Of a stretch of DNA of 64,000 bases, positions 16,280 through 18,836 are shown one piece after another. The first letter of the stretch is position 1. Each line of letters begins with the position of its first letter. Origin of the DNA: Alphaproteobacteria bacterium (lineage in GTDB: Bacteria > Pseudomonadota > Alphaproteobacteria > UBA6615); assembly GCA_965261975.1 (NCBI GenBank), contig CBDHEC010000056.1:1-64000 (forward strand). Reading direction: 5' to 3'. The translations under genes were made by a program, and so were the position numbers. Under the pieces are notes generated by a model. That model was not told the origin of the DNA, made no database searches, and saw only the letters and a list, made by a program, of their open reading frames with translations.

Positions 16280-16819
16280 CTAGGTACCGTCGCAGGAATG
16301 GGTCGGCAGGCCTGGCCCGCCCGCGAGCGTGCTGCGCCGCTCCAGCAGGATGACATCGCGCCAGTCGCCGTCGATATGGCCGTAGCGCTCGCGCCGGCCG
16401 ACCTCGCGGAATCCGGCGGCGCGAAGCAGCGCGCGGCTCGCGGCGTTGCCGTCCATCACCTGGCCCTGCAGGGTCCAGTAACCGTCGGCCTCGGAGATTG
16501 TGATCAGGCGGGCAAGCAGCGCCGCGCCGATGCCCTGCCGGTGATCCGTGTCCTTCACGTAGACGCTGACCTCAGCGACCCCGGCGGCACCTCAGGTGTC
16601 CGGAACCGGTGACAGCGCGGCGAACCCCGCGACGGACCCGTCGTGCCGGCGCGCAACCAGCCGGCCGAGCTCCAGATGATCCGCGTTCCACGCCCCCCAT
16701 TTCGGCGGGCTGGTCGTAAAGGCCGCGAGACCCGACGCGAGCCCTTCGCCATAAATCACGCGAACATCTTTCCAGTCATCGCGCTGCATACTTTCAATCA
16801 TGGCATTCATCTTCGTCAT
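16280..16819 (-). CDS. phosphinothricin/ArsN1-like GNAT N-acetyltransferase with in-frame TGA (16592-16594), putative selenoprotein
   Basis: ORFs 16592-16819 and 16280-16558 are in the same frame; read-through gives ...AALSPVPDT-TGA-GAAGVAEVSVYV...HRQGIG...WTLQ...NAASRAL...GFREVG...WRDVILLERRS. Confidence 0.8.
16558..16591 (-). promoter_or_regulatory. candidate bacterial SECIS hairpin directly 3' of the UGA
   Basis: mRNA UGA GGUGCCGCCGGGG-U-CGCUG-AGGU-CAGCG-UCUACG: 5-bp stem closing an AGGU loop 19 nt after the UGA, with an unpaired U at position 17. Confidence 0.6.
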
Positions 16820-16895
16820 GGGCAGGCATCGCCTGTGCCCGTATGGTTGTGGTCTCGAATGACATCCCGGAATCTAGCACAGGGGAGGAACGACC

Positions 16896-17477
16896 ATGGC
16901 AACACCCATCCGGCGCGTGGTGATGGGCCACGACGACAACGGCAAGGCGGTTGTGATCGAGGACGGTCCTGCACCGTTCGTGCATATCAACCCGAAGAAT
17001 GATGACGACTGGTCGACCGACCTGTGGCGGACCGGCGAGACCCCGGCGAGGATCGTCCAGCGGCACGATGAGCCGACCCTGGGCCCGCGCCGCCAGATGC
17101 CCCAGAAGAATGGCAGCGTGTTTCGCATCAACCATTTCGCACCCGAGACCGAGGACGTGCGCAACCGCACCGTGGAGGAGGCGCGCGCGGCCTTCCGGGC
17201 GCTCGGCAACGAGCCGGCGTCGACCTATGGCCGTGGCGGGGATCACCCGGCGAGCCACCGCACGGAGACCATCGACTATGCGCTGATCCTGTCGGGCGAG
17301 ATCACCATGGTCATCGACGATGGCGAGGTCGAACTGAAGGCGGGCGATGTGGTGATCCAGTGCGGCACCAACCATGCCTGGGTCAACCGCAGCGACAAGG
17401 CCTGCGAGGTGATGTTCGTGCTGCTGGACGGGGAGTTCGATCCGGATCTGGCTGCGAAATTCCCCCAGGGCGACTAG
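16896..17477 (+). CDS. cupin domain protein
   Basis: IRRVVMGHDDNGKAV N-terminus; HRTETIDYALILSGE...GDVVIQCGTNHAWVNRS cupin motifs. Confidence 0.85.
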   Translation: MATPIRRVVMGHDDNGKAVVIEDGPAPFVHINPKNDDDWSTDLWRTGETPARIVQRHDEPTLGPRRQMPQKNGSVFRINHFAPETEDVRNRTVEEARAAFRALGNEPASTYGRGGDHPASHRTETIDYALILSGEITMVIDDGEVELKAGDVVIQCGTNHAWVNRSDKACEVMFVLLDGEFDPDLAAKFPQGD

Positions 17478-17495: not shown

Positions 17496-18836
17496 ATGAC
17501 GCACAGCGACGAGCACGGCAGGCGATTCAACGACGGACTGTTCGCGGGGCTGCGGCCCAACCGGTCTGCCGCGCAGGTGCATTTGCGCACCTTGGTTCTG
17601 ATTCGCTGGATCGCCATTGTCGGTCAGTTGACCGCGTTGCTGATCGTGCGGTTCGGGCTCGACTGGCCGTTACCCATCGACGCCGCACTTGCGGCGGTCG
17701 GGGCGTCGGTGTTGTTGAATGTGGCCATGTCTCTTCGCCGTCCGGTGCGTGGCCGGTTGAGCGAATGGGAGGCGGCGGCCTACCTGGCGTTCGATATCCT
17801 GCAGCTGGCGGTGCTCCTGTATCTCACCGGGGGGCTCGGCAACCCGTTCTCTTTGCTGTTTCTCGGGCCCGTGACGGTGTCGGCCACAACCCTCAGCCGC
17901 TCCGCGACCACGCTGTTGAGCATATTGGTGATCGGTTGTGCGAGCGGGTTGGCTTTTCACCACCTGCCGTTGCCCTGGTCGGAGGAGGGGTTGCAGCTTC
18001 CGGTTTTCTATATCGGCGGACTGTGGACGGCGGTGGTCCTGGGCACGATTTTTCTCGGTGGTTATATCGGCAGTGTGGCAGGCGAGGGTCGTCGCATGTC
18101 CGATGCGCTGGCGGCCATTCAACTGGCCCTGGCGCGCGAGCAACAGCTCTCGGCGCTGGGCGGGCTGGCCGCCGCGGCCGCCCATGAGCTGGGCAGCCCG
18201 CTGGCGACCATCGCGGTGACGGCCAAGGAGCTGACCCGCGAAATCCCGCAAGACAGCGAGTTCGCCGACGACATACGCATCCTGCAGGCCGAGGCGGACC
18301 GGTGCCGGGATATTCTCGCCGAATTGGGGCGCGCGCCCGACGTTGCGGACCCCGGGGATCCGTTTGCCACCGCGCTGCTGTCGGATGTGGTGGCGGCCGC
18401 GGCGGCCCGGCACCGCGAAGAGGGAATCGTGCTGGATCTCGTGGCGGCCGGGATCGACGAGAGTGCCGAACCGACGGTCATGCGAAGTCCTGAATTGCTG
18501 CACGGTCTCGGGAATGTGATCCAGAATGCGGTGCAGTTTGCCGACGCGCATGTCTCGGTCGATATCTCCTGGGACGAGGCGGAAGCCCGGGTCGAAGTGC
18601 GCGACGACGGACCCGGATTCCCGCCGGCGGTACTCGATCGTATCGGCGAGCCCTATATATCAAGTCGGGGCCAGGGTCATATGGGATTGGGCATCTTCAT
18701 CGCGCAATCCCTGCTCGAGCGGACAGGGGCCCGGTTGCGGTTTTCGAATACGCGCGCGGCGGCGCGTACGGATGGGGCGGAAGTCTCGATCACGTGGCCG
18801 CGCGATGATCTTGAAGTTGATGCAGGGACGGGTTAA
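17496..18836 (+). CDS. regB: redox-sensing histidine kinase RegB/PrrB/ActS
   Basis: RTLVLIRWIAIVGQ, LYLTGGLGNPF quinone-binding motif, AAAAAHELGSPL H-box, RCRDIL redox Cys. Confidence 0.93.
   Translation: MTHSDEHGRRFNDGLFAGLRPNRSAAQVHLRTLVLIRWIAIVGQLTALLIVRFGLDWPLPIDAALAAVGASVLLNVAMSLRRPVRGRLSEWEAAAYLAFDILQLAVLLYLTGGLGNPFSLLFLGPVTVSATTLSRSATTLLSILVIGCASGLAFHHLPLPWSEEGLQLPVFYIGGLWTAVVLGTIFLGGYIGSVAGEGRRMSDALAAIQLALAREQQLSALGGLAAAAAHELGSPLATIAVTAKELTREIPQDSEFADDIRILQAEADRCRDILAELGRAPDVADPGDPFATALLSDVVAAAAARHREEGIVLDLVAAGIDESAEPTVMRSPELLHGLGNVIQNAVQFADAHVSVDISWDEAEARVEVRDDGPGFPPAVLDRIGEPYISSRGQGHMGLGIFIAQSLLERTGARLRFSNTRAAARTDGAEVSITWPRDDLEVDAGTG

Follow-up and report, generated by a model that had tools for sequence, protein, structure and literature searches.

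We found that a gene in the window (the whole 64,000-nucleotide stretch of alphaproteobacterial DNA analysed here) very probably encodes an intact selenocysteine (Sec)-containing acetyltransferase of the GNAT superfamily and, to judge from sequence comparison, represents a genuine, so far uncatalogued selenoprotein family in that superfamily. In our alignments and tree, the Sec GNAT forms a clade of its own inside the ArsN1/PAT-like subfamily. A Sec-containing acyltransferase had been proposed in a preliminary description made from the letters of the window, and the proposal is now supported by sel genes in the genome, by homologues with Cys in place of Sec, by a TGA in 47 out of 47 loci of the clade and by a SECIS-like hairpin.

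When translated with table 11, the gene shows as two open reading frames (ORFs) of 75 and 92 amino acids (aa). The two lie in the same frame and are split by the TGA, as originally described; the strand, however, had to be corrected, since the gene runs on the minus strand. Reading through the TGA results in a 179-aa product with the residues SPVPDT-U-GAAGVAEVSVYV around the codon. The expectation of an intact GNAT upon read-through was also borne out, as translation of the window copy reveals no second lesion. The genetic code is normal, TGA terminating 329 of 831 long open frames in the window's genome. The features of the gene are collected in Table 1.

Table 1. Position of the Sec GNAT gene and its elements in the window.
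Feature	Position	Strand	Description and basis
Whole gene	16280..16819	(-)	179 codons, PAT/ArsN1-like GNAT, one UGA read through; ORF list and translation
Start and stop codons	ATG 16819 (alternative ATG 16810); TAG 16282-16280	(-)	
Proposed selenocysteine codon	16592..16594	(-)	In-frame UGA, codon 76; TGA conservation and aligned Cys
SECIS-like hairpin	16559..16582	(-)	nt 13-36 from the U of UGA; 24 nt, MFE -9.2 kcal/mol
Core stem-loop	16564..16577	(-)	5-bp stem, nt 18-22 with 27-31; AGGU apical loop, nt 23-26
Glu83 codon (GAG), VAEVS strand	16571..16573	(-)	Invariant in 33/33 Sec forms; aligned to Glu of 9igk; codon inside hairpin stem/loop
R-Q-G-I-G-A, residues 94-99	16523..16540	(-)	Position of acetyl-CoA-binding motif; translation; G96 and G98 nearly invariant
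C-terminal extension, residues 163-179	16283..16333	(-)	S-x-x-x-G-G-P-G-L-P-T-x-S-C...; predicted coil; Sec forms only
Tail cysteine, Cys176 codon	16292..16294	(-)	Invariant in 33/33 aligned Sec forms

The TGA could have been confined to the window's assembly, and it is not. All 47 loci of the clade that we collected (24 species genomes and 23 metagenome contigs) carry it at the homologous codon, at protein identities of 48-89% and a genomic GC running from about 0.36 up to 0.71. A search of 61 related genomes gave 12 further orthologues (63-89% identity) with one TGA apiece. Among the 46 genomes of the GTDB family, 19 have an orthologue at E <= 1e-30, each with the TGA (19/19), and a class-wide sample of 401 genomes provided three extra holders from two further families, plus G045, which had been found earlier. 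One additional holder genome (L052) was contributed by a genome-contig scan with a single protein, which gave only 5 loci because its patterns are exact peptides. The metagenome scan, where the query was a marine homologue with Trp at this position in the database, returned 56 loci. Fifty-four were examined and 23 of them have TGA at the codon, all of the 'Trp' forms included. The clusters of these 'Trp' forms consist mostly of fragments of 71-79 and 99 aa, and thus were evidently called under a code where TGA means Trp. Holders of the TGA form fall in four GTDB families, although related genomes among them are not independent; the clade as a whole spans at least four alphaproteobacterial families and low-GC marine contigs. 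Some database fragments of these marine contigs are labelled SAR324. Word shares were small in seawater, estuary and other metagenomes and are not taken as evidence of habitat; runs X2 and X3 contain contigs of relatives.

This conservation bears on two explanations of the TGA as an accident. The source assembly is a draft of 59 contigs, in which a sequencing or assembly error at 16593 might be suspected. We give this virtually no chance: an error is refuted by the 46 other loci, where the TGA comes from independent assemblies and metagenomes; as weaker evidence, two further sequencing runs contain contigs of relatives that span the codon, with no change there among the rows listed. A pseudogene, that is, a nonsense mutation in a decaying acetyltransferase, would fit the two ORFs seen with table 11, the presence of only halves in databases and the further damage to 3 of the 24 genome copies (the frame is lost in G021 and G063, and G068 has a second TGA at the conserved Trp44), damage which suggests either dispensability or MAG errors. 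Nevertheless, decay is extremely improbable and is effectively refuted by the persistence of the TGA across loci of such divergence. The window copy has no other lesions, neither the motif surrounding the TGA nor the tail Cys varies, and clade orthologues align without gaps from the TGA through the C-terminal Cys. Furthermore, when the SECIS codons are left out, dN/dS 3' of the TGA ranges over 0.08-0.28 across all 14 pairs, close to the upstream values. By this measure, purifying selection acts on the sequence that follows the TGA, and the TGA is no lesion. One sequencing run contains the complete window and may be its source; an RNA run covers only 16891-17000, in the neighbouring gene, with no cover over 16280..16819.

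The relatives of the Sec protein point to the residue that the UGA replaces. We collected the best 120 full-length database homologues, 118 of which have a recognisable motif; three of these are forms with TGA read as Trp, leaving 115 non-Sec homologues. In 99 of the 115, Cys is aligned to the Sec, most commonly in the contexts RCVYA (41) and RCVYG (39), in agreement with the family pattern given when the TGA was first placed on a Cys. Identity is 50-61% over about 90% of the length, the top full-length match being 61%. Distant members have Trp (true TGG), Ser, Pro, Ala, Lys and other residues at this position, which therefore holds no universal or classic catalytic Cys. Among the collected loci, no Cys-bearing member of the Sec clade itself was found.

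To place the Sec forms we used a maximum-likelihood tree of 95 rows, comprising 33 Sec forms, every third of 117 database homologues, and, once duplicates had been dropped, those non-TGA metagenome forms in which 130 or more residues were matched. The 33 Sec forms make up one side of a branch with an SH-aLRT support of 97, or 96 when the loop and tail columns are left out; on this phylogeny, the Sec forms are one clade with a single origin. The clade is distinguished by linked traits: the TGA with its hairpin, Thr/Asn-U-Gly replacing Arg-Cys-Val (present in 33/33 Sec forms), and a Gly/Pro-rich C-terminal extension. The tail is absent from all 31 non-TGA metagenome homologues and from all 115 non-Sec database homologues. 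The sister group to the Sec clade in the tree is a Cys subfamily of 160-170 aa (SPVSxRCVY[AG]GVAEVSVYV; annotated GNAT, PAT or YncA). Unlike the Sec clade, these proteins retain the Arg that precedes the Cys and the Tyr that follows, and lack the tail (0/115), while their genes have no conserved hairpin codons and are found in selA-less genomes.

The hairpin 3' of the UGA has its stem 14 nt and its loop 19 nt from the UGA. Numbering from the U of UGA as 1, U17 is unpaired, so that both this base and the GGU-containing loop noticed in the preliminary description stand. In its unpaired U17 and the G/U in the loop near nt 23-24, the hairpin probably resembles that of E. coli fdhF. It also agrees with all four constraints of the bSECIS model as given in section 5 of PMC13188914: the loop is 4 nt and has G as both its second and its third base, the stem is 5 bp, the distance between UGA and loop is 19 nt, and the MFE is -9.2. 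A scan of 16400-16700 with Rfam at E <= 10 gave no SECIS family and two chance matches only.

Besides conforming to the published model of a bacterial SECIS, the hairpin is frozen at synonymous sites. Within nt 17-32, only nt 30 varies (C in 37 and U in 2 of the 39 distinct sequences from the 47 loci), and the change keeps a G.U pair. In the 12 orthologues, 7 of the 8 codons from +3 to +10 use one single codon, compared with 2 of 39 other codons for invariant residues. Conservation of nt 17-32 extends even to contigs of 36-39% GC whose neighbouring codons are AT-rich. All five stem pairs are intact in 47/47 TGA forms versus 2/46 non-TGA homologues, which vary freely across the hairpin codons. 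Likewise, the exact 17-nt core is found in 43/47 TGA forms versus 1/19 of those non-TGA homologues whose VAEVS residues are the same. This one case is L134, a non-Sec homologue in which a Gln codon takes the place of the TGA, and it shows that the core can arise through codon choice. The folding energy does not differ significantly from that of dinucleotide shuffles (z = -0.04 at 50 nt, -0.62 at 101 nt). As such z-scores are unremarkable for GC-rich DNA, we dropped energy as an argument and let conservation carry the weight. Since the stem hardly varies, there is no compensatory covariation, and the case for the structure is one of conservation alone.

The invariance of this region also argues against a naturally split GNAT, in which translation would stop at the UGA, a second polypeptide would start downstream, and the two would assemble. 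A GTG is indeed present 12 codons past the TGA, and gene callers do give C-terminal fragments of 86-99 aa. However, the residues between TGA and GTG, GAAGVAEVSVY, are invariant and comprise the conserved Glu and a strand, and hence must be translated. The break would moreover land within a beta strand of the AF2 model, the frozen synonymous sites make a hairpin and not a ribosome-binding site, and the link to selA would go unexplained. We regard a split enzyme as hardly credible.

If the UGA is read as Sec, the gene should be accompanied by the means to insert it. The sel genes looked for in the window's genome were found, on contig C22: selA (582 bits), selB (473), tRNA-Sec (71) and selD (291), all above curated cut-offs. 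Across genomes, selA is present in 24/24 with the TGA form versus 55/401 in the class sample; within that sample it occurs in 6/6 TGA-form holders and in 0/12 genomes with only non-TGA homologues. Ten genomes of the GTDB family lack selA, and the Sec GNAT gene is absent from all of them. We also sought a Sec-containing formate dehydrogenase in the window's genome (G000) for comparison of SECIS elements; there was none, all matches being without stops.

The same genome was scanned for other in-frame TGAs. A genome-wide search for TGA followed by a hairpin with a GGU loop was unusable, because most of its 167 candidates were spurious frames of GC-rich DNA; filtering by GC3 left 27 candidates, the GNAT among them. 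One other candidate, a pyridine-nucleotide oxidoreductase on contig C59, was plausible and was rejected: its TGA is at a Trp codon and is a private TGG-to-TGA change, as 4 relatives have TGG at the site and 1 has AGA.

These observations are relevant to the reading in which the UGA is decoded other than as Sec, either by a near-cognate or suppressor tRNA (for Trp, Cys or Arg) or through regulated termination with RNA-stimulated general read-through. It finds some footing in the unremarkable energy of the hairpin, in the fact that selenium insertion is here a prediction from sequence, in two other TGG-to-TGA changes in these MAGs (Trp44 of the G068 copy and the oxidoreductase of G000), and in the marine forms that gene callers read as Trp under code 4. 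We nevertheless consider such decoding very improbable. It does not account for the strict co-occurrence with selA described above; the nearest homologues carry Cys and not Trp; the hairpin obeys the SECIS rules of spacing and loop; and the TGA of the oxidoreductase, unlike that of the GNAT, is private to one assembly. Decoding as Sec thus remains our preferred reading.

By analogy with standard bacterial decoding, SelB with Sec-tRNA(Sec) would bind the stem-loop 14 nt past the UGA, resulting in insertion of Sec at codon 76. Without selenium, a product of only 75 residues would be expected.

The read-through protein has the features of a GNAT, with Pfam matches to PF00583 (41.4 bits) and PF13420 (31.3 bits). 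An AF2 model built on 33 clade members has a mean pLDDT of 86.3 and a pTM of 0.85, with residues 163-179 as coil. Foldseek matches the model to many GNATs with a probability of 1.00, and the TM scores to 9igk, 5dwn, 5t7e, 5wph, 3dr6 and 2j8m are 0.76-0.83. The fold is common to the ArsN1 family A, PAT, BAR and MddA-YncA GNATs, and the strand with the conserved Glu and the acetyl-CoA motif are kept. ArsN1 family A (NF040503) is the best NCBIfam model for 33/33 Sec forms (best E-value 9.4e-35). The window protein nevertheless scores below the cut-offs of this model (110.4 bits; cut-off 170) and of PAT (NF040502; 53.6 bits; cut-off 300). The Cys sister forms, too, fall below the ArsN1a cut-off (130-151 bits in 10/10 tested), which makes nearness to ArsN1a only a weak pointer to arsenic.

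Two elements of the GNAT active centre can be recognized. The equivalent of Glu83 in PAT enzymes is, we assume, the general base. The pyrophosphate-binding motif for acetyl-CoA in GNATs is Q/R-x-x-G-x-G/A, and residues 94-99 occupy its position. As this motif and the conserved Glu are retained, acetyl transfer to an amine is most likely kept.

The acceptor side, in contrast, differs from that of ArsN1 and PAT enzymes. U76 aligns to the residue that directly follows the second Arg in the R-P-R-A-A-Y of 9igk, the structure of P. syringae PAT. This places Sec in the loop with which ArsN1/PAT enzymes reach into, and gate, the acceptor site of the partner subunit. The two Arg positions of 9igk correspond to Pro73 and Thr75, and the Tyr to Ala78 in the window's form, while marine forms retain the Tyr. 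In this alignment, therefore, the Arg-x-Arg...Tyr segment with which ArsN1/PAT bind and gate a glutamate-analogue acceptor is not preserved in the Sec protein. According to the account of ArsN1 in PMC6465285, Arg75, Ala76, Arg77 and Tyr80 of the partner chain bind arsinothricin and phosphinothricin and gate the channel. The identical spacing, followed through a third sequence, suggests that U76 is the counterpart of the residue after ArsN1 Arg77. Compared with ArsN1/PAT, the Sec clade thus lacks both gating arginines and has, in addition, Sec in the loop and a tail bearing Cys.

The genes next to the Sec GNAT offer no hint as to its substrate, as no neighbour is conserved across lineages. The immediate neighbour in the window is a cupin; elsewhere the neighbours include peroxiredoxin with GCS2 ligase, gluconolactonase, radical-SAM SPL, methyltransferase, enoyl-CoA hydratase, Rieske oxygenase and glyoxalase.

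What might the selenol do in such an enzyme? The preliminary description had raised As or metal binding and an acyl intermediate as possibilities. Acceptor recognition may have been rebuilt around it, with Sec76 and Cys176 coming close enough to act as a selenol/thiol pair in the acceptor pocket. The co-occurrence of Sec, loss of Arg and the tail Cys would fit a soft-ligand or redox role, but is no proof of either. As a tentative possibility, with chances below even, the pair may bind a thiophilic group of the acceptor, which could be, for instance, a trivalent organoarsenical or some other amino acid with a soft metalloid. Only slightly less likely, the two residues may form a selenenylsulfide that gates the substrate channel by redox change. 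That the pair gives rise to a covalent intermediate, either acyl or mixed Se-S, appears decidedly improbable. Our most specific conjecture, which we think rather unlikely to hold in full, is that this protein is the first selenoprotein of the GNAT superfamily, with Sec in the acceptor site and not as a redox catalyst, and that Sec76 together with Cys176 of a mobile tail would replace the Arg gate, capturing a soft thiophilic substrate for N-acetylation or acting via a covalent Se intermediate. If Sec does serve in the acceptor site, this would add a new chemical use to those of selenocysteine and would hint that marine bacteria deal with a natural product or toxicant as yet unknown.

The split appearance of the gene is reflected in its annotation. 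Public databases contain it only as halves: at E <= 0.001 we found 168 short proteins, which go by the names phosphinothricin acetyltransferase, YncA or hypothetical, and the sole full-length entries come from gene calls in which TGA stood for Trp. A check against curated selenoprotein models, proposed at the outset, favours novelty, as the NCBIfam selenoprotein models match 0/33 members. A GNAT domain occurs in none of the 119 prokaryotic selenoprotein families and subfamilies catalogued in a 2026 review (PMC13188914, Table 1). The terms GNAT, acetyltransferase and acyltransferase are absent from the main texts on GOS, BSepDB, deep-Sep and the Sargasso Sea and of the 2026 and 2022 reviews, and a full-text search of the literature returned no paper on such a protein; supplementary tables may list a candidate. 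That a Sec GNAT has already been noted somewhere is, in our estimate, unlikely, with the chance being nonetheless a real one.

To our knowledge, known selenoproteins are almost all oxidoreductases or metal-centre enzymes. The Sec GNAT is unusual because its enzyme type is not redox, and it would broaden the range of enzymes known to use Sec. The Sec clade, which lost the arginines and gained the tail Cys, and the Cys sister clade with the same fold make up a natural experiment. A dedicated model of the family would mend many annotations as well as counts of the marine selenoproteome.

A precedent is the selenoprotein arsenite methyltransferase, an experimentally verified entry in Table 1 of PMC13188914. 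As described there, it is likewise a group-transfer enzyme with Sec and not a classical oxidoreductase, and belongs to arsenic-related metabolism, although its fold is unrelated and its motif is UxxG. For the Sec GNAT, a link to arsenic comes only from ArsN1a being the nearest named family. With known bacterial selenoprotein genes in general, for which fdhF is the archetype of the bSECIS, the gene shares the in-frame UGA, the 3' stem-loop with G-G at 19 nt, the Cys homologues and selABCD. It differs from them in that the host protein is an acyltransferase, has no CxxU/UxxC redox motif, and has its putative partner Cys 100 residues away from the Sec.

In two genomes (G356 and G217) a Sec form of the acetyltransferase coexists with a distinct paralogue from this GNAT subfamily that lacks Sec, so the two forms would not be simply interchangeable. 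Three genome copies of Sec-GNAT look damaged: in the G068 copy (L057) an additional TGA replaces the invariant Trp44, while the copies of G063 (L060) and G021 (L031/L061) go out of frame, one past roughly residue 96 and the other past roughly residue 116. This damage could be real decay or could reflect consensus errors in the metagenome-assembled genomes.

The 17-nt core of the SECIS-like hairpin was also found, identical, in L134, a homologue from G075 with a Gln codon at the Sec position. The core there arises purely via the choice of codons for VAEVS, a caution against interpreting the hairpin by itself.

The Sec machinery genes of G000, the window's own genome, are clustered outside the window (contig C22:73288-84887). 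There selA adjoins selB, with tRNA-Sec and selD about 6-8 kb further along. The selD match sits within a 757-codon open frame, suggesting that the predicted SelD is a fusion protein.

G000 has another in-frame TGA, also outside the window, at codon 36 (context FVEE-*-DFGGTC) in the gene for an FAD/pyridine-nucleotide-disulfide oxidoreductase of 448 aa. We rejected this enzyme as a second selenoprotein: the relatives compared have TGG (four) or AGA (one) at this codon, so the TGA is either a nonsense mutation private to G000 or a mistake of the assembly.

Coordinates of the features discussed
Feature	Location	Strand	Remark
17-nt core, L134 (G075)	around base 1725	minus	non-Sec homologue
Oxidoreductase in-frame TGA	L143:1637-1639 = G000 contig C59:30436-30438	minus	
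Peroxiredoxin / GCS2-type ligase homologue	L063:2052-2687 and L063:3665-4786		flank L063 Sec-GNAT
Cupin-domain protein gene	window 16896-17477	+	Pfam
446-aa ORF, putative sensor histidine kinase	window 17496-18836	+	after cupin gene
Coexisting Sec form / non-Sec paralogue	G356: L127 and L141; G217: L126 and L142		

In the window, the cupin gene is transcribed divergently from Sec-GNAT, and a putative sensor histidine kinase gene comes after it, an arrangement common to the genus and family only. The low-GC marine Sec-GNAT (L063) is flanked by genes for a 1-Cys peroxiredoxin and a homologue of GCS2-type glutamate-cysteine ligase; L064 has the same downstream ORF (373 aa) at the same position. 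This thiol/redox flavour of the neighbours was not seen in other lineages.
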